DNA of 64,000 nt from the IMG/VR virus record IMGVR_UViG_3300034107_000314, positions 1 through 64,000 of that record, one strand, 5' to 3'. Each line of letters begins with the position of its first letter. Position 1 is the stretch's first letter. A program made the position numbers and the translations under genes. This document shows positions 2 to 54,914 of the stretch, piece by piece. This DNA is from a virus. Under the pieces are notes generated by a model. It was not told where the DNA came from. It did no database searches and saw nothing but the letters and a program-made list of their open reading frames with translations.

Positions 2-3022
<3,021 letters not shown>

Positions 3023-37892: not shown

Positions 37893-37925
37893 AAAAAAAG
37901 CCCCGGATAATACCGGGGCTTTTTT
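37893..37925. terminator. Bidirectional intrinsic terminator
   Basis: AAAAAAAGCCCCGG-ATAATA-CCGGGGCTTTTTT between convergent gene arms. Confidence 0.92.
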
Positions 37926-39137: not shown

Positions 39138-39906
39138 TGTTTATTTCCAATTCTATTAACCGATCCTTTTGATCGGGAAATTTGTTGCTAATTTTAGTCA
39201 ATTCTGATTTGATAAGCTCTACTAGTTGATTATTAGATCGTAAGGATACATGTCTTAATAGATATTTAACTCTAATAACACAAAATCCTTTCGATAATAA
39301 AGCTCCGTTTTTGATCGCATCGTACTTTATATTCCTACTTAGCGAGGTTTCTCCATAAACTGGAAGAAAGTGTTGAGGACCATCTATCTCAATAGCAGTC
39401 CTGAGAGATGGTATGTATAAGTCCACCTCAAACCTCTGTCCGGGGATCAATCCGACCTTATGTATTATAACATCGTACCCAGCTTTTGTCAACTCTTCGT
39501 ACAAGAATCTTTCGGCTTTTGACCCCTCTGTACTTGCTTTTCTTAATGCCTGACCCGCTCTCTTCTGCATCTCCAGTCTCTGCTCAGGAGATTTTAATTC
39601 CCAGTTCTCTTTAGCATTTTGCTTGAAGATTTCCCTATCAGATTCGCTAACTTCACTCCATTTCTTAGATCGTTTGATGCTAATGTTATGCTTTTCTTCT
39701 TTTGTTCTTTTCTTACCTAGCATTGGAGGACTTATCTTTCCTTGATCAAAAGCGATTCTTCCAGCTTCCTTTTTTGATCTAAGGGTGTAGCCAGATTGTT
39801 TAATCATTCTGGCAATTTTATTTGGATAAGTATTTAAAGATTCTGCTATCTCTCTAATACTCATTCCACTTTCATAATCATCTATAATTTTATTTAAATC
39901 AAACAT
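39130..39906 (-). CDS. Vsr/DUF559-like (EDxHD-type) homing endonuclease with HTH and NUMOD3-like motifs
   Basis: Y.SGMSIREIA..L HTH; GKKRT.E.K..IS; S..E..L....VDLY.P....AIEIDG..H. Confidence 0.75.
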   Translation of the reverse strand: MFDLNKIIDDYESGMSIREIAESLNTYPNKIARMIKQSGYTLRSKKEAGRIAFDQGKISPPMLGKKRTKEEKHNISIKRSKKWSEVSESDREIFKQNAKENWELKSPEQRLEMQKRAGQALRKASTEGSKAERFLYEELTKAGYDVIIHKVGLIPGQRFEVDLYIPSLRTAIEIDGPQHFLPVYGETSLSRNIKYDAIKNGALLSKGFCVIRVKYLLRHVSLRSNNQLVELIKSELTKISNKFPDQKDRLIELEINNE

Positions 39907-40340
39907 TTATATAATTCATCCATATTTTCTGCAATATAAATATCACTTCTATTAGTAAAATTCTGAACAATTTTTTTGTGCGATTCGCTTCTTACTACGA
40001 TTTTAAACTTATCAAGAATACTTCTACACGCTTCATAGCTCATGACTTGATTTAACCAAGGAATATCCCACAAGAATAACCAATTATCTGTATGTGAATT
40101 ATTTGACAATACTATTTGAGCAGTGTCAAAACTAAAGCACACTGCTTTTCCTGTAAAATTTGATAATCCTATGATATTCATCATAAAGCAATTTGGTGGA
40201 GTCATTGGGGGTATTAAATTTTGATAGAATATATACGGAGATACTTTATTTGTCTCAGCGCCAATTTTTGTGATCAATTGCAATAGTTCAAAATTTTGTT
40301 CGCAGCCACCCAAATTATTAACTACAAATCCTAAATTCAT
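39894..40340 (-). CDS. Glycosyltransferase-like fragment (GT-B N-terminal-like)
   Basis: N-terminal G(F)VV..LGG, L.D.PW, IVV.S...K pattern; located in the GT cluster. Confidence 0.35.
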   Translation of the reverse strand: MNLGFVVNNLGGCEQNFELLQLITKIGAETNKVSPYIFYQNLIPPMTPPNCFMMNIIGLSNFTGKAVCFSFDTAQIVLSNNSHTDNWLFLWDIPWLNQVMSYEACRSILDKFKIVVRSESHKKIVQNFTNRSDIYIAENMDELYKCLI

Positions 40341-41086
40341 AGTATCTCCTTTAATTTATCTAATGTTATTTTTGATTCCTTTTCAAACCCCAAATTTTGC
40401 AAAATACTTGCTACTGCATGAAAACTTGTTGACTTGGATAAAACTTCCTCTATCTTATCTTTCATATCTATCTTCTTATTTAATTCTTCAAGTATATTCG
40501 CGTTAAGATCTATTGGGCGACATCCACATAGAATAGAATTATATACATTATCACCACTTGCAAAACTTAACTTTGAAGAAGCGTAAATGTTCTTTCTGGT
40601 TGGTTCTGGAGCATATCCACAATATCTATTATGTTTGACAATTTGACTAGAATAGAATCTAGATATTACAGATTCTGGAACATTAACATTTTCAAGATTT
40701 TCCAGTGGAGTGTCTTCAATTGATACTAGATCAGCTTTATACTTATCTTGCTTTTCTCCCTTTAGATAAACAAATAAATCTGCATGTCCAGTATCCAATA
40801 TCCAATGGTATAAATCGCCAAAAGCGTCTTTAAACATTTTAAAGTTTGGATGTTCAGGAAAATTATCTTTTTGCAGGACACAAACTCTCATATCTGGACG
40901 TTCTTCAATATTCTTAATCACCGCTTTGGTTAAGAAATTTGCATCTGCTATATATAAATCTGGCTTTACAGTATAAAAAGTATCAAAGGTCGATACTGAA
41001 CCGGGATCATGTTTTGCAGCTTTAAATCCTGAATATAATAGGCATCTACCATATGATATCAAACTATTATCGACTAGTGTTTTCAT
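40337..41086 (-). CDS. Divergent glycosyltransferase-like (CgeB/GT-B-like) protein
   Basis: KPDL, Y.ADLV.I, YCG, ..IY.SSK.S pattern. Confidence 0.4.
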   Translation of the reverse strand: MKTLVDNSLISYGRCLLYSGFKAAKHDPGSVSTFDTFYTVKPDLYIADANFLTKAVIKNIEERPDMRVCVLQKDNFPEHPNFKMFKDAFGDLYHWILDTGHADLFVYLKGEKQDKYKADLVSIEDTPLENLENVNVPESVISRFYSSQIVKHNRYCGYAPEPTRKNIYASSKLSFASGDNVYNSILCGCRPIDLNANILEELNKKIDMKDKIEEVLSKSTSFHAVASILQNLGFEKESKITLDKLKEIL

Positions 41087-41780
41087 TATTAATATCCTTT
41101 AAGCTATCTATTTCTTTTATAAAACTATTACCAATATCAATGCATTTAAAGTTTCCATTATTTTCTATAATTTTATTAATTACTTCAAATGTCAACATAA
41201 ATTTGGGATTAAAATCATTTCTTAATATTAATTTTCTTAATATATTAACTTCTTGCTCTGCGAGAAATGCTATTTGACACCACTTTACAGGTAAACTATA
41301 AGATAGCACTGTTGCATTTCCATTTACTATCGTAACTCCAACTTCTTTATCATCAAACTGCTTCCCCTTATCAACCAATAAGAACGATTGATTGAGATTT
41401 ACATTTTTAAACAAATCTTCACTAATTACTAAGTCCCCATGTAAAAATAGTATATTGTCAAGCATTGAGTTGTTGACTGCTATTTTTAAACTTTCCCCAC
41501 TATTTGTATTTTCATAGGCTGGATTTTCAATAATGCGTGCTTGTTTATTGATTTTACGTATAATTTTATTTATATCAAATCCACAAACTATACTAATTTC
41601 ACACTTATTAAAAATCGCATTGATTATATCTATTTGATTGTCTAATATTGTTTTACCATTATATTTTAACAAGCATCTTGGCTCATAGGATCTTGTTCTA
41701 GAACCTAATCCAGCTGCCAATACAATCACTTGAATAGGAGGAAAGTTCTTATTTTTAATATTTCTTGTAAATCTACTCAT
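41067..41780 (-). CDS. NTP-transferase (LicC/sugar-phosphate nucleotidyltransferase-like)
   Basis: VIVLAAG.GSR....P.CLL..NG.TIL..QI; N..Y..TN...SL; L.GDLV; EID. Confidence 0.85.
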   Translation of the reverse strand: MSRFTRNIKNKNFPPIQVIVLAAGLGSRTRSYEPRCLLKYNGKTILDNQIDIINAIFNKCEISIVCGFDINKIIRKINKQARIIENPAYENTNSGESLKIAVNNSMLDNILFLHGDLVISEDLFKNVNLNQSFLLVDKGKQFDDKEVGVTIVNGNATVLSYSLPVKWCQIAFLAEQEVNILRKLILRNDFNPKFMLTFEVINKIIENNGNFKCIDIGNSFIKEIDSLKDINNENTSR

Positions 41781-42400
41781 GTTACAAAAAGCGCTTCTGG
41801 GATATACCTAACTAAAGCCTTGTTAAATGCATTACGAATAAGATCCATAGGTTCAACAATAAATGATTCCTTGTTTATAACTTCTTTACTAAAAGATATT
41901 TCTTTAATAGGAATAAAGTAATTAACTAGTTGATGTATAGTTGATAAATACTGATATTGTCCATTCGTAATATAATCAGAGTAGACAATTCCAGTCAACT
42001 TGTCTTCGAATTTTTTAAGCGTTTTCTCTACAAAATTTGACATATAAGTAGAACCAGAAGATAGTGTCATGTATATATCTGTTTGTGAGTACATTTTTTG
42101 TATTGCAAATACTTGTAAAGCTTTCACATCAAGAGTATCGACTGTTTTAATGTAAATATAGTTCACATTATTATGGCTTATCTTTTTGATACTATAGTCT
42201 TTAAACTGTTCATAAATAACTTGAGATTGACTGCAACAGCTATTAAAAAATACATTAATTATATCAGCAGAGCTTTCAGATATAGCACCGTTAGATATCA
42301 TACATATATTTGTTGGCTTTACAGTATTGTCAACTACACTCAACACAGACTTTAAAAAATCTTTACTGTCTTCAATTGGCAATATTACGGTTGATTTCAT
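41777..42400 (-). CDS. Degenerate GT2 (GT-A fold)-like protein
   Basis: TVILP....L.SV...T..P..I..I(SNG); DI...L(SSG)..Y...F.EK....F.....GIVYSDY. The acidic DD/DxD residues are absent. Confidence 0.55.
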   Translation of the reverse strand: MKSTVILPIEDSKDFLKSVLSVVDNTVKPTNICMISNGAISESSADIINVFFNSCCSQSQVIYEQFKDYSIKKISHNNVNYIYIKTVDTLDVKALQVFAIQKMYSQTDIYMTLSSGSTYMSNFVEKTLKKFEDKLTGIVYSDYITNGQYQYLSTIHQLVNYFIPIKEISFSKEVINKESFIVEPMDLIRNAFNKALVRYIPEALFVT

Positions 42401-42926
42401 CTATTTCCTCCCAAGTTTTAATCATTGATGGTGACTGTTCTTTTATTTTTTCTTCATATGTCATATTTTTGACAATATCATTTTCTTCGTCAATCTCTAA
42501 TTTACTTCCTTTTAAATACTTGAAGATATAATTAAAATATGCCATACCATTAATAGAATCCGAATCATGTCTTATTAAAGCTACTGGGATATTAGATGTA
42601 GTTATTTTATTTATTTTTAAATAAAGATCTTCATTAAAATCTTCACCAACAATATTTACAACAGTCCATCCATTTTTGATATTATTAATGAATTGGTCTA
42701 ATATATAGATATCCGGTATTTTATTATAATTTAGTACAATATTATATTGGCATTCCAAGTATCTCATTTCATCAATAATATCGTCAGCAGACTCTTCTAG
42801 ATTATGACAAATACCAATCCAGTTTGGATTATGATGTAATACCTTAGATATATTATCTTTTAATTGTGATAAGTGAGATACATCTTTTAGTATAAAGATG
42901 TATCCTATTTTATTGTATATATTCAT
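42372..42926 (-). CDS. Hypothetical protein, possibly degenerate GT-A-like
   Basis: Located in the GT cluster; only weak alpha/beta pattern. Confidence 0.4.
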   Translation of the reverse strand: MNIYNKIGYIFILKDVSHLSQLKDNISKVLHHNPNWIGICHNLEESADDIIDEMRYLECQYNIVLNYNKIPDIYILDQFINNIKNGWTVVNIVGEDFNEDLYLKINKITTSNIPVALIRHDSDSINGMAYFNYIFKYLKGSKLEIDEENDIVKNMTYEEKIKEQSPSMIKTWEEIDEINRNIAN

Positions 42927-43342
42927 AGTACTTTCGTATACTCAAGTTTAAATTCTATATTACTAAGAACGACAGATTTTAATTGTATATACTGAAATTG
43001 GTTTAGAAAATCTTTTACTAATTCATTTGTAATAAAAGATTTAAACCCCTTGGCCTGTTCTGCCATTTGATTCAATTCTAATAAATTACCAGTTTTTCTA
43101 TATGCAAATACTAGTAGATCAAAATCAATATCGCTAATGATTAAACTTCCTTCAGGTCTAAGTTTCTTTACAATTAGAGAAAGAATATTTGGAATTTTGT
43201 TAATACTATACTGTCTCAACAATCCATCAAGTATAATTGAAGTACACTCAGAATCATCTGCAACATATTCCAACATTTCAACCTGTGATAAAACCTTAAA
43301 TGATTCGTCTTTAATAGACCTGTTTCCAAGATATACTTTCAT
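42923..43342 (-). CDS. Degenerate SAM-dependent methyltransferase-like protein
   Basis: K.YLG...D......I.....L......L.....KL.P.G.L.I...DF resembles Methyltransf_11, but the GCG and H.LEH motifs are lost. Confidence 0.55.
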   Translation of the reverse strand: MKVYLGNRSIKDESFKVLSQVEMLEYVADDSECTSIILDGLLRQYSINKIPNILSLIVKKLRPEGSLIISDIDFDLLVFAYRKTGNLLELNQMAEQAKGFKSFITNELVKDFLNQFQYIQLKSVVLSNIEFKLEYTKVL

Positions 43343-44424
43343 ATAAATAAATCCTTAACTAAATTGCTATTTGTAAAATTAAACTTATCGACAGAACTAA
43401 TACATTTTTCTGAAATGTCTTGATATGAATCTTTGTTATTTAAAAATAACTCATATACTTCTCTCATTTTATTTTGTAAACCTAACACATCAATATTTAG
43501 CCAGTTGTCTTCAGATGTATATAAATCATCAAATGAATTATTTTCTGAATAACAAGGAGCTAGGTAAGAACGCACTGGATATCCATGAATATCATATTCT
43601 GAAATGCCAATTCCATCAGTATAAATAGGCACTACTCCCAATGCAGTTGCTTCGATGGCTGGATAGCACCAGCCTTCACCATGACTAGGAATTACAATTG
43701 CGTGACACTGCCTAAGAGTAGAGAAAACTATCTCTTCTGGTATCTGGTCAGCAATAACGATTTCTTTTTTAAATTTCTTATACTTTTTCATTTTGGACTT
43801 AACATTATCACAAAATTCTGTGACTTGTTTTATATTTCCAACAGTTTTTATATATAAATTTACTGGTTCTATATATTCAAATTCACTATGGAAAGCAATT
43901 AACAAGCTCTCTAAATTTTCTTTTTCATGTATAGATCCTATGAACACAAAATTAAATTTATTATTTAGCTCAGGTATACTTACTGTAGATTTTGTATCAA
44001 TAATTTTATTATAATTAAAACTATGGTTAAATACTTTTACCTTATCTGCATCAATTCCAGATCGTAATAGACATTCCTTGGATACCTCGCTAGGAACAAA
44101 AATTAAATCCATTAGTTTAATATTTTTAATCCATAGTGTATTCGTTAATTTTAACATATCAAGCTCTAATGCCGCTATGTTAATTGCCCCTCCGATATAT
44201 TTATAATCTTTGGGAAGGTAATGATGGACAACGTAATCAAAATCATCAGATGTTTTAGAAGTTAATTCCTTGATATCCTCTTCAAAATATGTATTTGCAT
44301 TGTTATATTTTATTTGAGTGCAATATACATCATGCCCAGCATTGTGCAGAGCTAATGCATTATATGTAGCGGCTTTTGCCCATTCAGTACCATCAGCAAA
44401 ATTTCCTATATATTTAATTTTCAT
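43339..44424 (-). CDS. Glycosyltransferase family 4 (GT-B)
   Basis: FVPS, F.F.FIG....KEN...L..AF..EF, PSHGEGWCYP.IEA.A.G (EX7E motif). Confidence 0.9.
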   Translation of the reverse strand: MKIKYIGNFADGTEWAKAATYNALALHNAGHDVYCTQIKYNNANTYFEEDIKELTSKTSDDFDYVVHHYLPKDYKYIGGAINIAALELDMLKLTNTLWIKNIKLMDLIFVPSEVSKECLLRSGIDADKVKVFNHSFNYNKIIDTKSTVSIPELNNKFNFVFIGSIHEKENLESLLIAFHSEFEYIEPVNLYIKTVGNIKQVTEFCDNVKSKMKKYKKFKKEIVIADQIPEEIVFSTLRQCHAIVIPSHGEGWCYPAIEATALGVVPIYTDGIGISEYDIHGYPVRSYLAPCYSENNSFDDLYTSEDNWLNIDVLGLQNKMREVYELFLNNKDSYQDISEKCISSVDKFNFTNSNLVKDLFI

Positions 44425-46073
44425 TTAGCACCTAATTTCTGTAATCTAGCGTTTTCCCAGTCATTAAACATTGATCTCATATTTAAGCACATATGGAATG
44501 CTTTTTCAATATTAAATTCCTCATATCTTTTTTCCATGTCTGGATGAGAATAATCATTATAATAATATCCGGGAATAGTGGATGTTAAAGTTGCTCTATA
44601 AGTAAGATCCTTTACCATTCTTTTCCACATAGACTGATTAATCAATTCTGGCTTACCAAGTACATGAATAAATAGCCAGCTAATCTGATCTGATGTTGTC
44701 ATATTTGCTATATCACTTGGTAGTGATGTTTGAGGAGTAAATAATCTAGACCCAGATTCCCAAGTTTGAGATTTATCAAGCACCGGAGCGTTTAAGAAGT
44801 AATTAAGCCATTTATTTGCGGCATAATCCCAATTATAAATCTCTTTAGAATTTTCATAGCATTTCTTAGCTATGTAATTTCTCTTGGACTTATCTAAGCT
44901 TAAACTTTCAATAGTTGCTGCTAAAGCTTTATTGTCTGGTATAGCTCGGTTACATCCCGTCTCAAGTTCTTTATAAAGAGCCAGAGGTTTAATGCCAACC
45001 CCTTTAATGTTATTAATCAAAGATTCCATAGCAGAATATTCAATTGATATAACTGGCAAACCTGCGTATGCAGCTTCTAACTGAGGCATTCCCCAACCTT
45101 CACTATTCGCCCATTGAATATAGACATCAAATAGATTATATACTTTATTGAGTTCGTCTTCATTAATCTTGTTTGATATTCCAACTACTGCTGATGAAAA
45201 TGTATTGCATTTATAACAAAATGTTACAGAGTCATTAAAGAATAGTGGCTTGATATCACCACAGTTTTTACACTTGTAGGTCATCAAGACTTTATTTCCA
45301 AGTCCATTCTCTTTAATCAGCTCTGGGATATCCCAACCAACATCAGGATATGCAGTATGGCAATACAGATAGACATTCTTCATGTCAGGGTTGTTATCTA
45401 TAAAGATTTTGAAAGCTTTGAACAAATCGTTATAAAGTTTTCTTCGTTGATTTCTCATGACTGTGCCAAAGATAATGATATCTTCCTCAAGTCCGAAGCT
45501 ATTACGCAATTCTTTCTTATTTTTAATTGGAAAGAAACTATTGCTAGCGCATGGTGATGCTACGTCAATAAAGTTAATATTCTTTGATTGTTTGAGCATG
45601 GTATCTCTTCCAAACTCTGAATATGCGAATACACCATTTGCAGATGAGTAAGTATCGATCCAGCTTGATGCTTGAGGTTCGGCATCTACAGTTGGCATGA
45701 TAGCCCAATTAAAGAAATCTCTAAATGGAGACCTTTCCTCAAATTCAAGCATCCACCAATCTCTAATATCCATTACAAAGTCCGGCTGAAAATCTAGCAA
45801 GACATTATTAAATGAAAATTCTCCAAATTTATTAGCCATAGAAGCATTGTAGAAATTCATCGCCTCATGATTGTTTGCATCTGGGATATTTGCATAAAAT
45901 TTCCAAGGGATATCTTTAATTTCTTCTGCTTCTGGTCCTGAAAAGCATCCTAATTCAGCCACTTCAAGCTCTGGGTGTTTAGATAATCTTTTTAAGATTT
46001 CCTTGGTATATACAGAGTATCCAGTGGGGTGAAAAGACGCCTCAGTTACAAAAAGAACTTTTTTCTTTTTCAT
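44421..46073 (-). CDS. Glycosyltransferase family 4 with zinc-ribbon insert
   Basis: TGY......I..RL, V.RNQ.RK...L..AF, YN.FDV......EGWGMP.LEA..AG.P; CKNC...CYKC insert. Confidence 0.9.
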   Translation of the reverse strand: MKKKKVLFVTEASFHPTGYSVYTKEILKRLSKHPELEVAELGCFSGPEAEEIKDIPWKFYANIPDANNHEAMNFYNASMANKFGEFSFNNVLLDFQPDFVMDIRDWWMLEFEERSPFRDFFNWAIMPTVDAEPQASSWIDTYSSANGVFAYSEFGRDTMLKQSKNINFIDVASPCASNSFFPIKNKKELRNSFGLEEDIIIFGTVMRNQRRKLYNDLFKAFKIFIDNNPDMKNVYLYCHTAYPDVGWDIPELIKENGLGNKVLMTYKCKNCGDIKPLFFNDSVTFCYKCNTFSSAVVGISNKINEDELNKVYNLFDVYIQWANSEGWGMPQLEAAYAGLPVISIEYSAMESLINNIKGVGIKPLALYKELETGCNRAIPDNKALAATIESLSLDKSKRNYIAKKCYENSKEIYNWDYAANKWLNYFLNAPVLDKSQTWESGSRLFTPQTSLPSDIANMTTSDQISWLFIHVLGKPELINQSMWKRMVKDLTYRATLTSTIPGYYYNDYSHPDMEKRYEEFNIEKAFHMCLNMRSMFNDWENARLQKLGAK

Positions 46074-46076
46074 ATA

Positions 46077-46400
46077 TTATTCCGTTTTACATCCTGCTGA
46101 TTTGAAATTTTTGACTCTAAATACAATTTTTTGACGATTTTGATCATTAAAAACCCACTTATGCTGTCGGGCTTCAGATTCAATAATAAGCATATCACCT
46201 TTTTTGAAGTGTTTAGCAATGGTTGTAGCACCACTATCCCAAGCTTCAAAATCTAAAAAGTCCACCCTGCGATGCTTTTCCCCTTCTTTATCTTTTCTAT
46301 AGTCTTCAACAGCTAAACAAAAATTAACAACATAAGTATTATTAACTTCCCTTAGTTCTGGCTCATTAGCCAATTTTCCTACAAAACAACAATTATTCAT
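46077..46400 (-). CDS. ssb: Single-stranded DNA-binding protein
   Basis: MN....VG.L..EPELR......V.F.LAV....KD.......DF....AW...A......KKG. Confidence 0.9.
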   Translation of the reverse strand: MNNCCFVGKLANEPELREVNNTYVVNFCLAVEDYRKDKEGEKHRRVDFLDFEAWDSGATTIAKHFKKGDMLIIESEARQHKWVFNDQNRQKIVFRVKNFKSAGCKTE

Positions 46401-46409
46401 ATGTAATCC

Positions 46410-48017
46410 TTAAATTTGCATAACTCTTTTTACAACAAATGATTTATCCTTCTTTTCCTGTACTTCTCCATATAATAGTACCGTATTGCCTTCGAAAAGC
46501 AACTTCTTATATTGGGAAAATTCTTCAGAAAAAACCGTAATAGAATCTAATTCACCCGAACTATCTTCGGCAATTACAAATGCCATAAACTCGCCTTCGT
46601 GCTGACCTCTTTTTAGTTTATATTCTCTAACTTGATTTACTTTAACTGCTAATTTGGCATCTTGCATTTTCTTTACTTCGCCATTAGCAATCTCTTTACA
46701 TGTGATATTTACATCATCTAAAGCAAGATTATCTGACTGCGAACAAGTTAAAGAACAACCCATAAGTTTCTGTTCAATATCTGCAATCCACACATAATCG
46801 TCTTCAAGTGAATAAGGAGGATTTTGCAGAGCTTGGTAGATATCTAGTACAGAAGTGATCCTACGGGAATTAATCTTATCATTATTATTAATCATTCTAT
46901 TAACTAATTCAATGAATGGAGCGTTAGCCATGTTTGTGCTTTTCCAATGATCTATGATCCACCCTTGCTCTTTGATAGTTAGCTTATTCCAAATATCAAA
47001 TTCAAAGATCATTCTATTTCTATTAAGCTTATTATTCTTACCTATTAATCCACCTACACTAATAATAGAAATGAATGCATTCTTCTTTATCTCATTGCCA
47101 ATAAGGAACAAGCATTCTAACCAATTGAAGTCTTTGATAGGTTTTCTTGCAATACCTTCCGCTTCTTTGACAACCTTGGCTAATGTTTCCTGTTCACCCT
47201 CTCCAACATTCTTAACATCGCTATATCCAAAGTATATGACATTCCTATCTCTATCCATTGTAAAGCGACGATAGAAGAAGTCAAGTCTAGGGGGCAGAAC
47301 TTCAATTCCTTGTAGTTTCGCATCCATAATCAACTCTTTAATCTCTCGCTGCTTATCTGGCTTACTAGATGCATTGTTTAGATACACTGTATAAAATTTA
47401 ATTGGATCATGAGTTTTACAATATGCAGAAGCAAAAGAGTTAATAGCGTATGCCACAGCGTGAGATTTATTAAATGAATAGCGAGCAGATGCTGCAATCC
47501 ATTCAAAAATCTTAGCTGCTGATACGTCATCTACTAATCCTTTAGCTTTTGCTCCATTGATAAACTTCTCTTCAACTTCTTTCATAAGTGCCGCATCTTT
47601 TTTACCCATAGCTTTACGTAGTGAGTCAGCCTCTTCAGGTGTAAAGCCAGCAATCTCTGTAGCAATACGCATAGCTTGTTCTTGATATACGATAATTCCA
47701 TAAGTTTTACCCAGCACTGTTTCCAGTGCCGGGTGTAAATATTTGGTCTCGTCAATCTTAGCCTTGCGATCTGTATAGTGCTTGGTCATGGATTTGCCGT
47801 CTAATTCGGCCTCTAGCGTGCCGGGGCGAATAATGGATACCAAGTCAGCTAATTCGTCAATAGAGCGAGGTTGCGCCCTTTTTGCCCAACTGGAACCCAG
47901 TCTGGACTCCAATTGAAAAACACCCTTAGTTCTCCCGCTGCAAATCAGATCCCAAGTCGCTTCGTCGTCAAAATTTTTGATATCTTCAATATGAACCATT
48001 GAATGCCCTTTCGACAT
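46410..48017 (-). CDS. dnaE: DNA polymerase III alpha, C-terminal part (fingers, HhH, OB)
   Basis: G.T.GVFQLES, RPG, TYG.IVYQEQ.M, AD.LRKAMGKK, Y.FNKSHA.AY, G..MAF...ED.SG. Confidence 0.92.
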   Translation of the reverse strand: MSKGHSMVHIEDIKNFDDEATWDLICSGRTKGVFQLESRLGSSWAKRAQPRSIDELADLVSIIRPGTLEAELDGKSMTKHYTDRKAKIDETKYLHPALETVLGKTYGIIVYQEQAMRIATEIAGFTPEEADSLRKAMGKKDAALMKEVEEKFINGAKAKGLVDDVSAAKIFEWIAASARYSFNKSHAVAYAINSFASAYCKTHDPIKFYTVYLNNASSKPDKQREIKELIMDAKLQGIEVLPPRLDFFYRRFTMDRDRNVIYFGYSDVKNVGEGEQETLAKVVKEAEGIARKPIKDFNWLECLFLIGNEIKKNAFISIISVGGLIGKNNKLNRNRMIFEFDIWNKLTIKEQGWIIDHWKSTNMANAPFIELVNRMINNNDKINSRRITSVLDIYQALQNPPYSLEDDYVWIADIEQKLMGCSLTCSQSDNLALDDVNITCKEIANGEVKKMQDAKLAVKVNQVREYKLKRGQHEGEFMAFVIAEDSSGELDSITVFSEEFSQYKKLLFEGNTVLLYGEVQEKKDKSFVVKRVMQI

Positions 48018-48201
48018 AATTCTTATACGCTTCTTCCAGCAATTTTATTAACTCATGATCATCATCAGTTATATATTCAGTCTGAGTATAGTCATCATAA
48101 TAATCCTCAGAATACCAGTCACCATCTGCATCTCGCTTATAATAACCATTATCTGTTTTAACATAGAAAAAGACTTCTCTGCTAACTGATATTATTTTCA
48201 T
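47986..48201 (-). CDS. Small acidic hypothetical protein
   Basis: 71 aa, overlapping both neighbours. Confidence 0.6.
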   Translation of the reverse strand: MKIISVSREVFFYVKTDNGYYKRDADGDWYSEDYYDDYTQTEYITDDDHELIKLLEEAYKNYVERAFNGSY

Positions 48202-48905
48202 AATGTAATATCCATAGGGGCATTTGCAAATGACTTCTCAAAGTTAGTCTTAGAATTTAACTTGCGTTGATACTTCATAAATCTGACAAAGATATTTGCA
48301 GTGTCAACAACATCATAGATAGCGTTGTGGGCATTTGCTTTACTCTCTTCGGGGAATCCAAAGAACTCTCTCAGGTATCCCATGTTTAATTTCTTAACTG
48401 CATCATTATCTTCAAACCATCCAAACAATACATCCATCATGTCTACTTTATAAATTTGATGAACGAGCTTTTGCTTTCCGGTTTTTTCTTCAGATGGCCC
48501 ATACATTTGACAATACCTATTTAAGATTGGCATATCATAGTTATTGATATTAAATCCTACAGGAATAGGTGCAAAGTATGGAGATCCTTTCATATTAAAC
48601 TTAGTTACAAAATTAGAGAACTGCTGCCAAGCAACTTTAGGCCCAACAGCTTTTTCTAATTGTTCGCGAGTCTTGCGAGTTACGTCAAGAGCTTCTTGTT
48701 CAACAGGATCGAACCCTGCTTTAATAGCTTTCTCATCATCAAACTCAGGTCGTACTTCAATGTCAAATACTCCACCCGGCTGAAGTGTTAGCTTCTTACC
48801 ATGCAATACTACTGCTGAGATTTGAGTCAATTGACACTTGTTTGGATTCTTGCCTGTGGTTTCAAAGTCAAAAATCAAAAAATCACGATTGCTGTTTAGT
48901 GACAT
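48198..48905 (-). CDS. dnaQ: DEDDh 3'-5' exonuclease (Pol III epsilon-like)
   Basis: DFETTG, GFN...YD, HNA..D. Confidence 0.88.
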   Translation of the reverse strand: MSLNSNRDFLIFDFETTGKNPNKCQLTQISAVVLHGKKLTLQPGGVFDIEVRPEFDDEKAIKAGFDPVEQEALDVTRKTREQLEKAVGPKVAWQQFSNFVTKFNMKGSPYFAPIPVGFNINNYDMPILNRYCQMYGPSEEKTGKQKLVHQIYKVDMMDVLFGWFEDNDAVKKLNMGYLREFFGFPEESKANAHNAIYDVVDTANIFVRFMKYQRKLNSKTNFEKSFANAPMDITL

Positions 48906-49116
48906 AGTTCTCTCTCAATTCTAAAAATTTATCAATAGCTTCGTTTAGGTCGTAAAATATTTGTGAGAATTTATTATTATGGACTTGATATATTCCATTC
49001 TTCTTCTCTCTGTACCAAGGAACATGATTTCTTAGATCGGATAAGCTCAAATCTTTAAAGTCAATGTCATTACCATCCCTGATAACAGTTGCGTAGTCTA
49101 GAAATTTTTCCTTCAT
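48883..49116 (-). CDS. Hypothetical protein
   Basis: 77-aa ORF in the operon. Confidence 0.6.
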   Translation of the reverse strand: MKEKFLDYATVIRDGNDIDFKDLSLSDLRNHVPWYREKKNGIYQVHNNKFSQIFYDLNEAIDKFLELRENYVTKQQS

Positions 49117-49117
49117 G

Positions 49118-50620
49118 TTAGTCCTTGTCTGTAATCTGCATAATTTTATCTAGTAAGTTAATCCCAAGCACATCAAATTTAGTCAGTCCAACTTTATCCA
49201 AGTCATGCATTTCAAATGCCACTAATCTATGACCATTCTTATCTGTAATAAGAGGCGCATCATTAATTAGATCTTCATTAGAAATAATTACTCCTGCCGG
49301 ATGTTTTCCTTGAGATTTATAAGTTCCTTCTATTCTTATAGCAAGAGAGAAAAGATCTGACAACTCTCCAGATAAATTACCCCCCTTGTCGATTCTACAC
49401 CACTTCTCAAGTCTCTTTGGATCATTTTCAAGAGTCCACCGAATCACTGATTTGATATCCATTTCTTCCAACTCATCCGAAATGCTAGCTTCTTGTGGCA
49501 AACTTTCAGTGATCTCGTTTAGCTCACTAAAAGATAAGTCCCCATAAACTCTAGCAACATCTTTAACTGCTGATCGACCTTGTAAACGTCCAAATGTAAT
49601 CATCTGATAAACTCTCTCATTGCCATACTTGTTCTTAATATAGTCAATGATTTCATCGCGGTGAACAGATGGAACGTCCATATCAATATCCGGCAAAGAA
49701 ATATTGTCTTTTGTAAATCGACCAGCATTTAAAAATCTAGAGAATAGTAAGTCATATTTCATAGGATCAATATCAATGATTCCAAGTAAATATGACACTA
49801 GACATCCACCAGCACTTCCACGGCCCGGACCCGGCAACCACTTATTGTTTCTTACATATTGAATAATGTCTTGCACAATAAGAAAGTATCCAGACAGTTC
49901 AAATCCATGAATAACAGATAGTTCATACTTAATACGATCAGTATATTCTTTCTTCCTATCGCCTTTTAAATGCATAAGTTTTGCTCGCCATCCATCCCTA
50001 CACAATTGTGTTAAGTAGTCATTTTCAGACATATCTCCACAATCTACGCGAGGTAGCTTGGGCTTAGAAAGAATGCTATACTGTTGCAATTCGGAATATA
50101 ACTGTTTAGTTCCAAAGTATTGCTTTTGACTAGGTATAATCCTATGAGGTGGATGAAAGAAATAATGATCAGACTCAAAGAACTTTTTATATTCTCCCAT
50201 GTCTACATCTTTAGCTTTCTTAAGTGTAGTTTTAAAGTTAAGACATAATACCATTCTATGAAGAATTGCGTCATTCTGTTCAGCATAATAAACTGGCATA
50301 ACTGCTAGTTCATCTTCTGTATAAAATTGTAAGTCTTCTTTATCGTATTCTATCTTTTCTTTAGAAGCTAGCTTAATTAAAGCCCTATACCCTTTTAAGG
50401 ATTTAGCGATGTAATATCCACCGTTCTCTTTCATTCCAAGGATTGGAACAATCCCCGCTTTATTCATGGCATTGAAGAAATCAACAACACCACTAATAGT
50501 TTCAATATCAGCAATTAAGCAATGAGTATAACCTAATTCTTTGCATTTCTTGGCAGCTTCATCTGGTTTGATGAAACCTTTCAATAATGAATAGTGTGTT
50601 GTTATAACTGGCAATATCAT
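49118..50620 (-). CDS. dnaE: DNA polymerase III alpha, N-terminal part (degenerate PHP, palm, thumb)
   Basis: HYSLL.G, YFLIV.D, GPGRGSAGG.LV.Y.LGI..IDP..Y.LLF.RFLN..R, PDID.D, G.HPAGVII, GL.KFD.LG. Confidence 0.92.
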   Translation of the reverse strand: MILPVITTHYSLLKGFIKPDEAAKKCKELGYTHCLIADIETISGVVDFFNAMNKAGIVPILGMKENGGYYIAKSLKGYRALIKLASKEKIEYDKEDLQFYTEDELAVMPVYYAEQNDAILHRMVLCLNFKTTLKKAKDVDMGEYKKFFESDHYFFHPPHRIIPSQKQYFGTKQLYSELQQYSILSKPKLPRVDCGDMSENDYLTQLCRDGWRAKLMHLKGDRKKEYTDRIKYELSVIHGFELSGYFLIVQDIIQYVRNNKWLPGPGRGSAGGCLVSYLLGIIDIDPMKYDLLFSRFLNAGRFTKDNISLPDIDMDVPSVHRDEIIDYIKNKYGNERVYQMITFGRLQGRSAVKDVARVYGDLSFSELNEITESLPQEASISDELEEMDIKSVIRWTLENDPKRLEKWCRIDKGGNLSGELSDLFSLAIRIEGTYKSQGKHPAGVIISNEDLINDAPLITDKNGHRLVAFEMHDLDKVGLTKFDVLGINLLDKIMQITDKD

Positions 50621-51648
50621 TCAACAGCTCCCGGATCTTTATAAGTTCCAATCACAAATCCCGGTCTAGTACATGTTTCGACCGTTTTTTGCATTCCAAT
50701 AGTTTTGATTTGATCTTCGACATGATGACACATAGTTCGTTCAGTTCCCGGCCAGTTTGTCTTATAGTAATGACATAGCTTTTGACATTTAAAACTTTTT
50801 CGATCTTGTGATATGGGTTTAGGATTTTGATTTGCTCTGATCTCTTCAAACATTGTTTTCAGAGTATTACTAAGAAAATACTCGTCATCATCTTTATCAA
50901 AAGCAAGCGTAAATGGTCCACCATCCCTACAGAAAAAGATAGTCATTAATGTATATCTATACTTGGGATAGAGTTTGCCAACGGCATAGTGATAAAGAAG
51001 TAGCTGGGTATCCTTCATCAGCTTGTCATAGTCCTTACGCTCTCCAGTCGCCCAATCAAGCCTCTGGCCAGTCTTCCAGTCGATTACTTCTATTGTACCA
51101 TCTTCCATCTCAGTTACAAGATCTATTGTCCCTTTTATCGCAAGATTTCCAGAAATTGGCCCATCTGGGCCATCAAAAGTGAATTTTGCCCAAGGCTCAT
51201 TGATTGGAATGTCAAAGTGAGGTTCAGTATCAATTACTTTTCTATTTCGTGGATCAAATTGACCCTTATTATACGACAATGTATCCCAAACCATTTTTTC
51301 ACAAAATTTATAATCTTTATCATCAAATGAATTATGTGTTGAGTTTTCTCTGTAAAATTGAAAACTTCTATTTAAGACTGAATAAACAAAAGCATCGCTA
51401 TGTAAATCTTTTTCAGTAAAAGAAAAATCACCCAAAGGTTCTTGAGTGATTTTCATGGTTGATCTTTTATTGAACTGAGTCCTTTTTTTACATATTGCTA
51501 ATGTTTCAAGCACTGCGTGAGTTATAGTTCCCAGATCTGCTTTTTTTCCTGATGGAGAATAATGACCCAGCACGTATGTCATAAAATATTGCAGTTCACA
51601 ATATTTCCAGTTGTTAAGACTGGAAGATCTAAAATAAGTAGTAATCAT
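50617..51648 (-). CDS. Cas4/AddB-like PD-(D/E)XK exonuclease with Cys ligands
   Basis: S.L..W..C, G...H..LE, G.IDL......EVIDWKTG, QL..Y, C...C...C. Confidence 0.82.
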   Translation of the reverse strand: MITTYFRSSSLNNWKYCELQYFMTYVLGHYSPSGKKADLGTITHAVLETLAICKKRTQFNKRSTMKITQEPLGDFSFTEKDLHSDAFVYSVLNRSFQFYRENSTHNSFDDKDYKFCEKMVWDTLSYNKGQFDPRNRKVIDTEPHFDIPINEPWAKFTFDGPDGPISGNLAIKGTIDLVTEMEDGTIEVIDWKTGQRLDWATGERKDYDKLMKDTQLLLYHYAVGKLYPKYRYTLMTIFFCRDGGPFTLAFDKDDDEYFLSNTLKTMFEEIRANQNPKPISQDRKSFKCQKLCHYYKTNWPGTERTMCHHVEDQIKTIGMQKTVETCTRPGFVIGTYKDPGAVE

Positions 51649-52460
51649 TTGATTGATGTTACTGCTTGTCTTTTATATACCTGCTCTGGTGGATTTAATA
51701 CTACGTCTTTAGACAACCATTTCCACTCATCTAAAACTTTAAGTAACTCTTGACAAGATTCTTCAATAGACATGTTTGCATTATCTAAGACGTAATCAAA
51801 CCCATTATAATTATCTAACGCTGATTCACTTACATGAGAGTCTTCATTGTGGAATCTTGTTAATCTAATAATTTTTCCTCCGGCTTTTTTAACTGCCTCT
51901 ACTTCATTTTCAAATCTAGCATCAGAAATAATAGCGAAGTTCGATTGTTCTGCTAAAATATCTTTAATTGCTCGATCTGTCCATACATCTGGATATATTT
52001 TTCTACAAATATCTGTGCCAAAATATTGGATAAATTCTCTAGCGGTCATTTCTCCTGTCTTGCCTTTAATTTTTGTAGGCATGTCTTCCCATTTATATTT
52101 AATAGGTGTATTTTTTTGTTGATCTGTTCCATACAATAATTCTTTGTCAATATTAAACAATGAAATTGCAATTTCTTTTAATGTAGTTGCAAAAGCGTAA
52201 TGCTTAACAAAAGGCCATACATTATCTATTGCCCAGATCGCAAAATCCATATCTACTCTGGTAATATCAATAATTCCTTGTCCGCTTTGTGTTTTACCAG
52301 ATGTATCGGTTACTAATGTTTCAATAACTAGTTCCCCTTGATCAGTAATTTCAAAAGCATCGATAATACCATATGATTTTAATTGATATCCATGTAAAAA
52401 ATTACAAAGAGTATTTTTGCCTGATTGTTTTTTTCCAGAAAATGCTAATATTTGACCCAT
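51645..52460 (-). CDS. Deoxynucleoside monophosphate kinase
   Basis: FSGKKQSGKNT, FA..LKE, TARE..Q..GT...R, SDARF.NE, H.SE. Confidence 0.88.
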   Translation of the reverse strand: MGQILAFSGKKQSGKNTLCNFLHGYQLKSYGIIDAFEITDQGELVIETLVTDTSGKTQSGQGIIDITRVDMDFAIWAIDNVWPFVKHYAFATTLKEIAISLFNIDKELLYGTDQQKNTPIKYKWEDMPTKIKGKTGEMTAREFIQYFGTDICRKIYPDVWTDRAIKDILAEQSNFAIISDARFENEVEAVKKAGGKIIRLTRFHNEDSHVSESALDNYNGFDYVLDNANMSIEESCQELLKVLDEWKWLSKDVVLNPPEQVYKRQAVTSIK

Positions 52461-53533
52461 TAAAAAAGCCCCTTAATTTGTGGTTTGAGTTCGTAATTGA
52501 TATCTTCAATAGACATGTCTCCAATATCCTTCTTTGATATTTTAGGTGTGAAATAATTAAATCTTCTACCACCTTTTTGGATAATGCCTTGTGCTGCCTT
52601 TTGTCCTGCCTCATCATTGTCTGTTAATATAACAATATTCATTACTCCAAGCTCTTCAAGATTAATTAATTGATCTTCACTAAGATCAGATCCAAATATG
52701 CCAGCGCAATTTTTAATACCTGATTCGTATAATCTCCAAACATCGCCTTGACCTTCAACTAATACAATTGTTAATAACTTTTGGATGTGTGGTTTAGTAA
52801 CCGATAGTCCATACAAAAAGAAAGATTTTTTAAAGCCTTTGCTGTTGAACCATTTTGGCTTAGTATGTTCGTCGGTTGCCCTTCCGACACATCCCACATA
52901 CTGAGAATTTTCATCATACACAGGAACGACTGCTCGATTGAACATTTGTCTATTAGAATTATAACACTCTCCAACATCAAAAGCTATCAAAGTTTCTGGT
53001 AAAAAACCTCTACTTATATAGTATTTTGATGGAATGTCAAGTGTTGCAATAACTTGCTCCCGTGATATGTTTAAGTTTAATTTTTCAGATTTACGAGTTA
53101 ATATTTCATTAATCTTATTAATCTCATAAATGCTTTCACTTATCTTTTCTTCTGGTATATCTATGATCTTTTTATTTAAGAATGAAAGTGAAAAATTTAA
53201 AGCTTTATAAAAATTAACTTCTTTACCTTCTCTTTGAGAAAGAACACCTCTCACAAAACCTATCATATTTTTACCATAGTCTTTTTCACAAGAATGCGTC
53301 CAACAAACCCAATTACCTTTAGTCTTAGAACCATCAGTAAAGATGCACGACCCTTCGCAGTTATCTCCTCCATGAACTGGACAAGGAAAGGCTATTCTAT
53401 TTGGAAATTCAGTATATTCAATCTTTAAAGCATTTAGTAATTCTGGAACTTTATCCGATAGCTCATTACATATCGAATAGATCTTCTCCCGACTCACTTT
53501 CTCGTATTTCAAAGGAATTGTCTTGACTTGCAT
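52460..53533 (-). CDS. dnaG: DNA primase (CHC2 zinc finger plus TOPRIM)
   Basis: CPVH.GDN...W.C...C; R...P........G..GR; LVEG..D; D.D.AG; KDI.D. Start taken at ATG 53533, which has a GGAG SD. Confidence 0.9.
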   Translation of the reverse strand: MQVKTIPLKYEKVSREKIYSICNELSDKVPELLNALKIEYTEFPNRIAFPCPVHGGDNCEGSCIFTDGSKTKGNWVCWTHSCEKDYGKNMIGFVRGVLSQREGKEVNFYKALNFSLSFLNKKIIDIPEEKISESIYEINKINEILTRKSEKLNLNISREQVIATLDIPSKYYISRGFLPETLIAFDVGECYNSNRQMFNRAVVPVYDENSQYVGCVGRATDEHTKPKWFNSKGFKKSFFLYGLSVTKPHIQKLLTIVLVEGQGDVWRLYESGIKNCAGIFGSDLSEDQLINLEELGVMNIVILTDNDEAGQKAAQGIIQKGGRRFNYFTPKISKKDIGDMSIEDINYELKPQIKGLF

Positions 53534-54914
53534 TCGCGGCTCCATTTTTAAGTTCATCTCTTGTATACCATTCAGTAAGTTTAGCAATCGAGCCATTCAT
53601 TTTAACATTAATATAATTGCCATACTCAAGTCCAGATCCATGTCTAGCTTTGATAATAACAAGTTTACGATTTCCATTCTCATCACCGTCATCTGCCACT
53701 TCTTCGTCGCTTTTCATTTGAAACTTAGCAACTGTAGACGCAAGCCATTGAAGTCTATCAGATTGTGCGATTTCCTCTTCTCGATTAAGCTGCACAAAAG
53801 ATAAACATGGTAGGTCGTATTTAATACAGAAGTCATTCATCTTTGTAATCTGAAAGCCTAAAGCTTGGTATTCTTGCATGGCAGCGGTTAGTCCAGCTGA
53901 ACTCATCAACTTGAAATAATCGTATATGATTAAGCAATCTTTAGTTCTTCCATTCTCATCAAATCCAACATATTGATGCACCCATCTTTTAATAATGTTA
54001 AGGATGTTATCAAACGGTTGACCTGCGATTGATATATAGTGATACGGTATCTTTTCAATCAACTTGGCTGCGGCAATCACCTTTTCTTTTGAGTTAAAAC
54101 TCTTAGCAAAAGCCCCTTTCGCAATCTCGTTAATCTTAATTCCGCTAATATTTGCTAACATACGGTTTCTTTGATCGCCAAGATCCATTTCTGTATCTAA
54201 ATATAGAACTGGGATATTATAAACTTCCGAAACATACTTTGCCACATTAGTAGAGATCACACTTTTACCAACACCAGTTCTAGCTCCGATTAGAGTGACT
54301 GACTTTCTTCTAAGGCCACCTCCTATCGCTTCATCAAATCTAGGAAAGCCTGTAGGAATACCAAGATAATCAGAAGGATTGTTAATAAGGTAATCTACAT
54401 AAGAATCAATATCTTCGCCAAGAAGTACAGTCTTATTGTTTTGTTCTTTATATGCAAGTGAAGTGATCTCCATGATTGGAGTTTCAACCATGCCAATGAT
54501 ATCTTCTACGCTCTCATCGCCTGTAACTTTAGTCATTGACTTATCACAGACAGATAGCGTCTTTTTAATATCTCTAGCTAATTTAAGTTTAGTTAACTTA
54601 GCAGCAAATTTAGGAATGTTATCTTTATTGATAGGGAAGTTAAAAAGCGACCGGATGAAACTCATTTCAGTCGCTTTATTGATTAATTCATACACGCCTA
54701 ACTTTTGAGCTGTTGAGAATATAGAGAGGTATTCAATATTCTGGTTATTGTTGATAACATCTTGCAAGCATGTAAATATAACCTGATTTAATTCGTGGCT
54801 AAAGTATTCTGCTTGCAAGAAGTCAAGCTCAACATAAACTTCCAGTCCGAACTGACAGATGCCAGCTAAGACGGCACGTTCAACTGGTAAATTCTGTAAT
54901 TCGGACTGGCTCAT
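53466..54914 (-). CDS. dnaB: Replicative DNA helicase
   Basis: E.AVL, GIPTGF..FD...GG, GARTGVGKS, TEM, DY, QLNR, I.KARHG. Confidence 0.92.
   Translation of the reverse strand: MSQSELQNLPVERAVLAGICQFGLEVYVELDFLQAEYFSHELNQVIFTCLQDVINNNQNIEYLSIFSTAQKLGVYELINKATEMSFIRSLFNFPINKDNIPKFAAKLTKLKLARDIKKTLSVCDKSMTKVTGDESVEDIIGMVETPIMEITSLAYKEQNNKTVLLGEDIDSYVDYLINNPSDYLGIPTGFPRFDEAIGGGLRRKSVTLIGARTGVGKSVISTNVAKYVSEVYNIPVLYLDTEMDLGDQRNRMLANISGIKINEIAKGAFAKSFNSKEKVIAAAKLIEKIPYHYISIAGQPFDNILNIIKRWVHQYVGFDENGRTKDCLIIYDYFKLMSSAGLTAAMQEYQALGFQITKMNDFCIKYDLPCLSFVQLNREEEIAQSDRLQWLASTVAKFQMKSDEEVADDGDENGNRKLVIIKARHGSGLEYGNYINVKMNGSIAKLTEWYTRDELKNGAANASQDNSFEIRESESGEDLFDM

Follow-up and report, generated by a model that had tools for sequence, protein, structure and literature searches.

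A conserved glycosyltransferase cluster in the replisome operon of an uncultured lake phage and its candidate acceptors

Virus-encoded glycosylation is well studied in the giant viruses of algae and amoebae and has only recently been shown for a few mycobacteriophages, which to our knowledge are the only tailed phages with experimentally shown virion glycosylation. The BclA-type Gly-X-Thr collagen of the Bacillus anthracis exosporium is O-glycosylated as well. For mycobacteriophage virions, PMC12619734 (citing Freeman 2023) describes glycans at the C-termini of capsid and tube subunits, and the described routes of phage DNA glycosylation need either a ThyA homologue or a C5-methylase with a TET/JBP dioxygenase (10.1101/2023.12.21.572611; PMC13326640). 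Here we analyse a cluster of sugar genes at positions 39894-46073, minus strand, of a 64,000-nucleotide stretch (the window) that forms the first part of the lake phage record IMGVR_UViG_3300034107_000314 in IMG/VR (155,259 bp, rated complete by CheckV); positions beyond the window refer to the whole genome. We are highly confident that this cluster is a real, clade-core glycan-assembly module, and our favoured reading, to which we give a probability of about 0.35, is that it is a reduced form of such a module acting on the phage's own virion proteins.

Gene content and conservation of the cluster

The cluster consists of eight back-to-back open reading frames (ORFs) whose boundaries are exact. 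A first-pass annotation had called all eight sugar-transfer-like, and family matches and motifs bear out the contiguity, the coordinates, two intact GT4 glycosyltransferases (GTs) and a nucleotidyltransferase, whereas the remainder comprises three decayed or truncated transferase relatives, one doubtful methyltransferase-like ORF and one ORF without any match. The lead enzyme, a GT4 of 550 amino acids (aa) that we call GT4-550 (44421..46073, minus strand, as are all eight), matches Pfam Glycos_transf_1 at E 2e-11 (44.2 bits) and PHROG 2170 at E 4e-24, and the second GT4, of 361 aa (GT4-361; 43339..44424), matches the same families at E 6e-9 (36 bits, where the Pfam cut-off is 26.4) and E 1e-17. 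Both carry the EX7E motif at the expected place (E325-E333 and E250-E258, respectively). The MobA/GlmU-type nucleoside triphosphate (NTP) transferase, a sugar-phosphate nucleotidyltransferase of 237 aa (41067..41780), matches Pfam NTP_transf_3 (E 3e-10) and the N-terminal MocA/GlmU families of NCBIfam, with a GxGxR loop and its LAAGLGSR signature at residue 24. Judged by these motifs, both GT4s are catalytically intact and the NTP-transferase is intact too.

The AlphaFold2 (AF2) model of GT4-550 (mean predicted local distance difference test, pLDDT, 87) has a GT-B fold with Z > 20 to many GT4 structures (VIA), and thus the two Rossmann domains of the family, to which are added a Cys4 insertion (C268, C271, C286, C289) and an extra C-terminal helical domain (~434-550). 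Its best solved match is B736L of chlorovirus NY-2A (3oy2; Foldseek E 4.5e-20; VIA Z 28.2, rmsd 2.8, 374 residues aligned) at 18-19% identity, and its structural neighbours also include BshA, MshA and sucrose-phosphate synthase (Z 25-26), GlgM and SenB (range Z 23.6-26.4). Across 30 homologues, both Glu residues of EX7E, the Cys4 insertion and a DIRDWWM block are invariant. Six homologues, of 868-896 aa (P0051, P0054, P0056-P0059), harbour an intein (Hint/LAGLIDADG) between residues 108 and 110, directly after the invariant DIRDWWM108. Inteins usually occupy such sites in essential, conserved proteins; finding one in a glycosyltransferase is unusual and identifies the insertion site as functionally critical. 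Relatives of GT4-550 number at least 118 in IMG/VR (47-73% identity), with 2696 matches from lake and ocean samples in a large protein collection, and the only homologues in cultured phages are those of the cyanosiphoviruses S-CBS4 (E 6e-20) and S-EIVl (E 8e-15), at 23% identity.

The remaining five ORFs are best understood by alignment to relatives, above all to the near-complete relative G001. The 207-aa ORF (41777..42400), which has no Pfam, PHROG or NCBIfam match of its own, looks like a decayed GT2 remnant: it aligns at E 4e-6 to a 278-aa protein of G001 in the same position that is a true Glycos_transf_2 (E 6e-17), whose D-A-D (DXD) motif has become S-G-S here. Similarly, the 249-aa ORF (40337..41086) is probably a shortened GT-B-like protein of YkvP/CgeB type, since it aligns at E 2e-9, with ~97 gap positions, to a 347-aa GT-B-like protein of G001 (itself a weak Glycos_transf_1 match), is ~100 residues shorter, and has an Atlas model that resembles YkvP/CgeB GT-like clusters (TM-score 0.61-0.62). 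The 184-aa ORF (42372..42926) belongs to a virus-only family that is perhaps GT-A-like, the lead being to GT2 only: its Atlas neighbours are all viral and GT2 occurs in 13% of the members of one of their clusters. It appears truncated, lacking the N-terminal Cys4 domain of ~270-aa relatives, in whose alignment the four Cys are nearly invariant. These GT2, GT-B and GT-A-like genes have thus lost motifs or domains. The conserved 139-aa protein (42923..43342) is possibly a methyltransferase-fold remnant (sub-threshold UbiG match, E 0.0024) and has homologues in 46 of 80 related loci by tblastn and 54 by blastp; neither this family nor the 184-aa one gave a significant match when its profile was searched against solved structures. 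The 148-aa ORF at the cluster end (39894..40340) has no Pfam, PHROG or NCBIfam match; homologues occur in 11 close loci, and the larger clusters of G001 and of a second near-complete relative, G002, end with weak ones of 157 aa (27-33% identity).

Conservation argues that the module is core to a clade that is a large uncultured group of aquatic siphophages with genomes of ~145-155 kb. The 80 fetched loci preserve the gene surroundings (SSB occurs in 74, the C-terminal part of DnaE in 79, GT4-361 in 71, the NTP-transferase in 52), and the median identity of GT4-550 (50.5%) is like that of the two DnaE parts (47.9% and 47.8%) and of replisome proteins generally (48-55%). GT4 genes are present in all 18 long relatives examined. 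The corresponding position of G001 is taken up by a run of sugar genes 18 kb long (64.7-82.9 kb), comprising three GT4s, a GT2, an NTP-transferase, a GT-B, a GDP-fucose-synthase-like reductase and a DUF6492 protein, followed by a CgeB-like GT, a GT47/RXYLT1-like protein, a GT10 alpha-1,3-fucosyltransferase, a second GMD and a GT25-like protein; in this distant relative the run thus encodes a GDP-fucose-type pathway and about ten transferases. Because that run is far larger and the local genes are shortened or decayed, we regard the window's cluster as a reduced version of it.

Operon context and the other sugar genes

The phage itself is without a cultured relative. A megablast of the cluster against cultured phages gave no match, and its capsid protein found, in 50,697 phage records searched, a sole match in Bacillus phage G at 21% identity. 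Its tail genes, including one for a 2997-aa tape measure, lie on the plus strand of the window and its replication genes on the minus strand from 37997 onward, the two convergent arms (late and replication) being closed by a hairpin terminator at 37894-37925. The cluster is co-oriented with the replisome genes and runs on from them without a gap, no intergenic space of 45 nucleotides (nt) or more occurring between 55395 and 37997, and the nearest strong promoter-like site is of sigma70 type, at 55942-55914. Upstream in the same operon (46077..54914, minus strand) Pfam matches identify a DnaB helicase, a primase, a dNMP kinase, a PD-(D/E)XK nuclease, the N-terminal part of DnaE, a DnaQ-like exonuclease, the C-terminal part of DnaE and SSB, such that DnaE is split with the exonuclease between its two parts. 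At the other end, a perfect TTGACA-17-TATAAT promoter with an upstream TG lies at 39492-39464 on the minus strand, within an HNH endonuclease gene (39130-39906), and faces the last genes of the operon (264 and 114 aa).

Beyond the cluster, the genome holds a gmd gene that adjoins the terminase genes and two more sugar islands. Both G001 and G002 have this gmd in syntenic position, at 62% identity. The second island, at 72-80 kb, encodes a GT7-like protein, a GNT-I-like protein, a DUF5672 protein, a sugar C-methyltransferase and a reductase, together with a GT4 at 72.3 kb (GT4-350) whose syntenic counterparts in G001 and G002 are 52-53% identical to it; beside the island lies a gene for a host-type, DUF1559 prepilin-like surface protein, a hint that the host may be of Planctomycete type. 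The third (genome 98682-101842) has two GT4s (301 and 377 aa) downstream of a TGTGTATATATTAATGGAGG motif at 101821. With the cluster, these genes give the phage a large, intact and self-encoded capacity for glycosylation, and to this extent the first-pass annotation is supported. By a hydropathy scan, a crude method, the genome encodes no polytopic membrane protein and the cluster is free of transmembrane segments, so that all the sugar enzymes look soluble.

A promoter-like motif, TGTGTATA(A/T)TATAAT, connects some of these sugar genes to virion genes. It lies upstream of the tube, tape-measure and portal genes, of 36842, of a tube paralogue and of an HNH gene (window 6508, 9911, 23226, 36793, 62913 and 63477; genome 130858, 136043, 138203 and 141267, among others), and also upstream of the operons that contain gmd (130858) and the third GT island (101821).

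Ser-Gly and Thr-Gly pairs in virion and other proteins

The fullest form of the virion idea, as the first-pass annotation had it, is a particle coated with O-glycans at (S/T)-G sites, including the Thr-Gly pairs of a collagen-like fibre, and it was built on Ser-Gly (SG) and Thr-Gly (TG) pairs counted by eye in what were taken to be exterior virion proteins. Two of these proteins are tail tube proteins. The major one (6567..7610, plus strand; 347 aa) is of the tandem-duplicated tube-fold type, and its AF2 model (pLDDT 73) matches by Foldseek the major tail protein of SH-Ab15497 (E 3e-11), the P74-26 tube (E 5e-8) and the T5 tube (E 2e-7). A diverged second copy, the tube paralogue (61737..62852, minus strand; BLASTP to the tube, E 1e-4), lies in the replication arm, with a TGTGTAT motif 61 nt upstream. 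A second diverged tube-like gene outside the tail operon was found in five of five relatives examined (in the replication arm where checkable), recovered from their whole records since a related-locus search with the paralogue found none, and its identity across relatives (23-31%, versus 40-63% for the main tube) indicates much faster evolution. The third protein, of 1455 aa, is encoded downstream of the tape measure (19012..23379, plus strand).

The by-eye counts are all exact: 13 SG, 6 TG and 0 GS (with 3 GT) in the paralogue, 10 SG, 7 TG and 6 GS in the tube, 25 SG and 10 GS in the 1455-aa protein, and a balanced 4 SG and 4 GS in RecA. Measured with 2000 composition-preserving shuffles per protein, (S/T)-G pairs number 19 versus 6.7 expected in the paralogue (3 in the reverse order), 39 versus 21 in the 1455-aa protein and 17 versus 8.4-8.5 in the tube; the shuffles never reached the excess of the paralogue, of 19012-23379, of 900-1886 or of the collagen protein, with p ~0.002 for the tube. 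The codon pairs are diverse, so the excess lies at the protein level and a DNA-level oligomer artefact is ruled out. We also rejected a simple beta-turn bias in which NG and DG rise together, as NG and DG are not enriched in the three biased proteins, and the analogy to the proteoglycan Ser-Gly sequon, as hydrophobic strand residues mostly follow the (S/T)-G sites and acidic flanking clusters are absent. Part of the excess is structural: in 19012-23379, 8 of the 39 sites make the turn of a repeat in the C-terminal part, [ST]G-x(1-2)-[LM]-x-L-[FY]-[LIM]. This repeat region (22500-23379; residues ~1165-1455) is degenerate, with units of ~15-30 residues ending in [ST]G-x-[LM]-x-L-[FY]-[LIM]-K (SGMNLFLK, TGFPLFIK, SGLELFLC), and looks like a beta-solenoid-type C-terminal domain of the large tail protein. 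In the model of the tube, predicted coil takes in 11 of the 17 sites entirely and strand ends account for 3 others, a mapping that does not discriminate because most tube Gly (33 of 43) are in coil anyway.

The richness that had been ascribed to exterior virion proteins is not a property of that class. The bias is reversed in 1883-3022, 34975-36216 and 149207-150622, the capsid protein is neutral (4 versus 4), and the observed/expected ratio of SG is 1.40 in late proteins (GS 1.13) and 1.31 in non-virion proteins (GS 0.92), with TG and GT equal in both. The first-pass annotation had proposed to compare SG with GS in virion and non-virion proteins here and in relatives with and without the GT cluster, naming equal enrichment in homologues from phages without GTs as the outcome that would speak against it, and in spirit this is what we find. 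Among phages without GT genes, lambda virion proteins have an SG ratio of 1.60 (GS 0.90), T5 replication proteins have 1.45 versus 1.02, and T5 pb4 and T5 DNA polymerase are significant in the same shuffle test (p 0.002-0.004). Structural proteins of G001 and G002 have SG ratios of 1.55 and 1.63 versus 1.23 and 1.09 for the rest, with TG not higher and lambda comparable. Among 15 tube homologues from cluster-bearing relatives, only those of locus L115, the nearest relative (63% identical; 14 (S/T)-G versus 7.1 expected), and of locus L123 are enriched, and six are reversed; of the paralogue's homologues none of five is enriched, the closest having 1 SG and 0 TG. All five aligned homologues retain S/T-G at only 4 of the tube's 17 sites and 1 of the paralogue's 19. 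We conclude that the (S/T)-G excess is most probably not the sequon of the cluster; it is a general Ser-before-Gly preference, raised in a few fast-evolving tail proteins of the lineage and partly through the repeat of 19012-23379. Counts of Ser-Gly and Thr-Gly are therefore unfit as a glycosylation signal, the same bias occurring in phages that do not glycosylate.

The collagen-like fibre deserves separate treatment. The window begins within the 3' part of its gene (3..1886, plus strand; PHROG tail-fibre and collagen-like matches), with ~99 Gly-X-Thr triplets (3-899) followed by a globular C-terminal domain, and the 5' part is at the other contig end (genome 153005-155257). Both contig ends lie inside Gly-X-Thr repeat DNA, and the apparent single gene reads as collagen, globular domain, collagen and C-terminal domain; as the frames on the two sides of the junction lie one base apart, the assembly was probably interrupted or collapsed in the repeat DNA. 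The earlier observation of Thr before nearly every triplet Gly is borne out, this stretch being almost pure Gly-X-Thr, and a further collagen-like fibre of 1808 aa has Thr at 161 of ~199 Y positions. A C1q/BclA-like identity of the globular domain is unconfirmed by sequence (no solved-structure match for L084:4344-4838, and Pfam gives Collagen only). Such fibres occur only in the nearest subclade (G005, G013, perhaps G011), while the GT core is universal, and none was found in the near-complete relatives G001, G002 and G018, each with 4-5 GT4s. The core enzymes thus cannot have had the fibres as their ancestral or main target. The extra sugar islands could use them as a lineage-specific target, accessory GT islands and collagen having been compared in contigs of the nearest relatives that are 32-61% complete.

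Two observations concern the genes around the 1808-aa fibre. Between it and the capsid gene lies a 148-aa gene (genome 141296-141742) that matches Pfam Gp80 (podophage GP4 fibre I; E 7e-19), beside which the long collagen protein may be a head rather than a tail fibre. Just after it, genome 147894-152002 encodes a tandem array of paralogues (438, 471 and 455 aa) with two Laminin_G_3/concanavalin-A-like lectin domains apiece; the three are candidates for receptor-binding proteins that bind carbohydrate, and the reverse (GS/GT) bias is seen in two.

Taken as a whole, the proposal of O-glycans at (S/T)-G sites, collagen Thr-Gly included, now seems very unlikely. It has on its side the protein-level excess in the tube paralogue, the tube, 19012-23379 and 900-1886, the enriched tube of the nearest relative, and the existence of Gly-X-Thr collagen fibres in the phage. 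Yet SG exceeds GS in non-virion proteins and in lambda and T5, several virion proteins lean the other way, TG is unenriched in the structural proteins of G001 and G002, a beta-repeat motif explains part of the excess, and complete relatives with 4-5 GT4s have no collagen. The (S/T)-G attachment idea was the sole link that the first-pass annotation offered between enzymes and virion, and with unconserved sites, unenriched homologues and the bias in lambda and T5 that link falls away.

Candidate acceptors and described systems

Our favoured reading, action on the phage's own virion proteins, can be formulated without any such sequon. The cluster enzymes would be made together with the replication proteins; the NTP-transferase and gmd would supply activated sugars, most likely GDP-linked 6-deoxyhexoses; soluble transferases would build an oligosaccharide stepwise on the acceptor, in the cytoplasm or at the inner membrane face; and the acceptor would be one or more virion proteins, a situation with parallels in chloroviruses, mimiviruses and some mycobacteriophages. 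Pointing this way are the TGTGTATA motif that virion genes share with the gmd operon and the third GT-island operon, the S-CBS4 homologue, which lies between portal and capsid genes beside a methyltransferase, and B736L, the best structural neighbour of GT4-550, which binds GDP-mannose and has an unknown acceptor (PMC9614988). A number of points weigh against it. The timing expected from a replisome operon with a sigma70-like promoter would suit modification of DNA or of the host surface at least as well. No TGTGTATA-type motif was found inside the cluster, and since the motif also lies upstream of several small genes at 87-111 kb it is not necessarily a late promoter. The capsid protein, which is 78-81% identical across the clade, ends in ...NRRVLAASF and the tube in ...FKVSTGVQS, so that neither has a Ser/Thr-rich C-terminal tail. 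The S-EIVl homologue adjoins a primase gene, many close structural neighbours of GT4-550 (BshA, MshA, sucrose-phosphate synthase) act on small molecules, and G001 has GT10 and GT25, families of lipopolysaccharide (LPS) type.

Several of these points lead directly to host-envelope remodelling, which is nearly as likely as virion glycosylation and stays a strong contender, although taken singly we would still call it unlikely. Here the transferases would act at the inner membrane face on lipid-linked intermediates of O-antigen, LPS core or exopolysaccharide (EPS), which host flippases would export, and the altered surface would block superinfection or stop progeny from sticking to infected cells and debris. 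The early or middle expression context among replication genes and the sigma70-like promoter fit such a role, as do families typical of LPS/EPS synthesis (GT4 here; GT2, GT10 and GT25 in G001) and the DUF1559 prepilin-like surface protein encoded beside the second sugar island. However, the hydropathy scan found no GtrA, Wzx, Wzy or GT-C type membrane protein in the genome, so export would depend on host machinery; surface-conversion genes are usually accessory, whereas this cluster occurs in every sampled relative, is conserved like DnaE and is an intein target; and gmd and the third GT island stand behind a motif common to virion genes.

DNA modification was named as an alternative already in the first-pass annotation; in this reading, DNA hypermodification, bases of the replicating genome would be glycosylated to evade restriction in T-even or MT/5mYOX style. 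The cluster does lie directly downstream of SSB and DnaE in an operon that includes a dNMP kinase, the S-EIVl homologue is by a primase, and described DNA-glycosylating clusters can hold a cytidylyltransferase and GT-B enzymes (10.1101/2023.12.21.572611). Against this, the whole 155-kb genome gave no match to ThyA (PF00303), C5-cytosine methylase (PF00145) or TET/JBP dioxygenase (PF12851) profiles, all of which matched in control genomes; it thus has neither a ThyA-type hydroxymethylase or 5-hydroxy-dCMP synthase nor the methylase-dioxygenase pair, and an ordinary ThyX is present. Neither T4 beta-GT nor alpha-GT is among the 50 best structural matches listed for GT4-550 (Foldseek, VIA), in itself a weak point. 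Because every known route to an acceptor base is absent from the genome, this alternative is weakened to the point of being improbable, while the host-surface alternative that had been named alongside it keeps its strength. A small molecule or other cytoplasmic acceptor is only slightly less improbable than that: the enzymes could make a glycoside (for example a compatible solute or a thiol-like cofactor) or modify RNA or a host protein and so reprogram host metabolism, consistent with their apparent solubility and with BshA, MshA, sucrose-phosphate synthase, GlgM and SenB as neighbours of GT4-550 (Z 23.6-26.4). These structural matches only reflect the generic GT4 fold, though, and up to about ten different transferases with a deoxy-sugar pathway suggest an oligo- or polysaccharide rather than a single glycoside.

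If the acceptor is the virion, the consequences would bear on adsorption, on particle stability and on recognition by grazers or host defences. More tentatively still, we suggest an abundant freshwater and marine clade with self-sufficient machinery like that of giant viruses (up to about ten transferases and a GDP-6-deoxyhexose pathway of its own), coexpressed with the replisome and needed to glycosylate its own particle; were this true, no tailed phages other than actinobacteriophages would have preceded it with such a system, and theirs are much smaller. Whatever the acceptor, a widespread lineage of aquatic phages has this sugar machinery as part of its core, conserved like DnaE and placed in a replication operon, with no known DNA-glycosylation route beside it, and the identity of its acceptor would reveal the role of a large share of the genes annotated as glycosyltransferases in aquatic viromes.

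Several described systems can be compared with the locus. Gtr-type and O-antigen seroconversion systems have an integral-membrane flippase or GT-C partner (GtrA, GtrX, Wzx, Wzy), and the crude hydropathy scan found none here. With phage DNA glycosylation (T4 alpha- and beta-GT; MT with 5mYOX and GT; arabinosyl-5-hydroxycytosine, PMC13326640) it shares GTs and a nucleotidyltransferase among replication genes, and it differs in having neither a ThyA homologue nor a C5-methylase with dioxygenase. The long Gly-X-Thr runs and the encoded 6-deoxyhexose pathway recall BclA-type collagen, whereas the fibres here are confined to the nearest subclade and are not co-inherited with the universal GT core. 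The cyanosiphoviruses S-CBS4 and S-EIVl (PHROG 2170) have shorter GTs of ~380-420 aa, in contexts that disagree (head module versus primase). Mycobacteriophages likewise encode GTs that could modify capsid or tail tube subunits in the cytoplasm; here, in contrast, the cluster is in the replisome operon, on the strand opposite to the structural genes, with only gmd adjoining the terminase genes, and capsid and tube are without Ser/Thr-rich C-terminal tails of the kind that PMC12619734 describes. Unlike chloroviruses and mimiviruses, the virus here is a tailed bacteriophage, known from its genes alone, with a Cys4 insertion and an extra C-terminal domain in its lead enzyme and a location in the replisome operon. 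What it has in common with them is a set of virus-encoded soluble GTs, a GDP-mannose 4,6-dehydratase pathway and many GTs per genome (PBCV-1 A064R, NY-2A B736L; PMC9614988).

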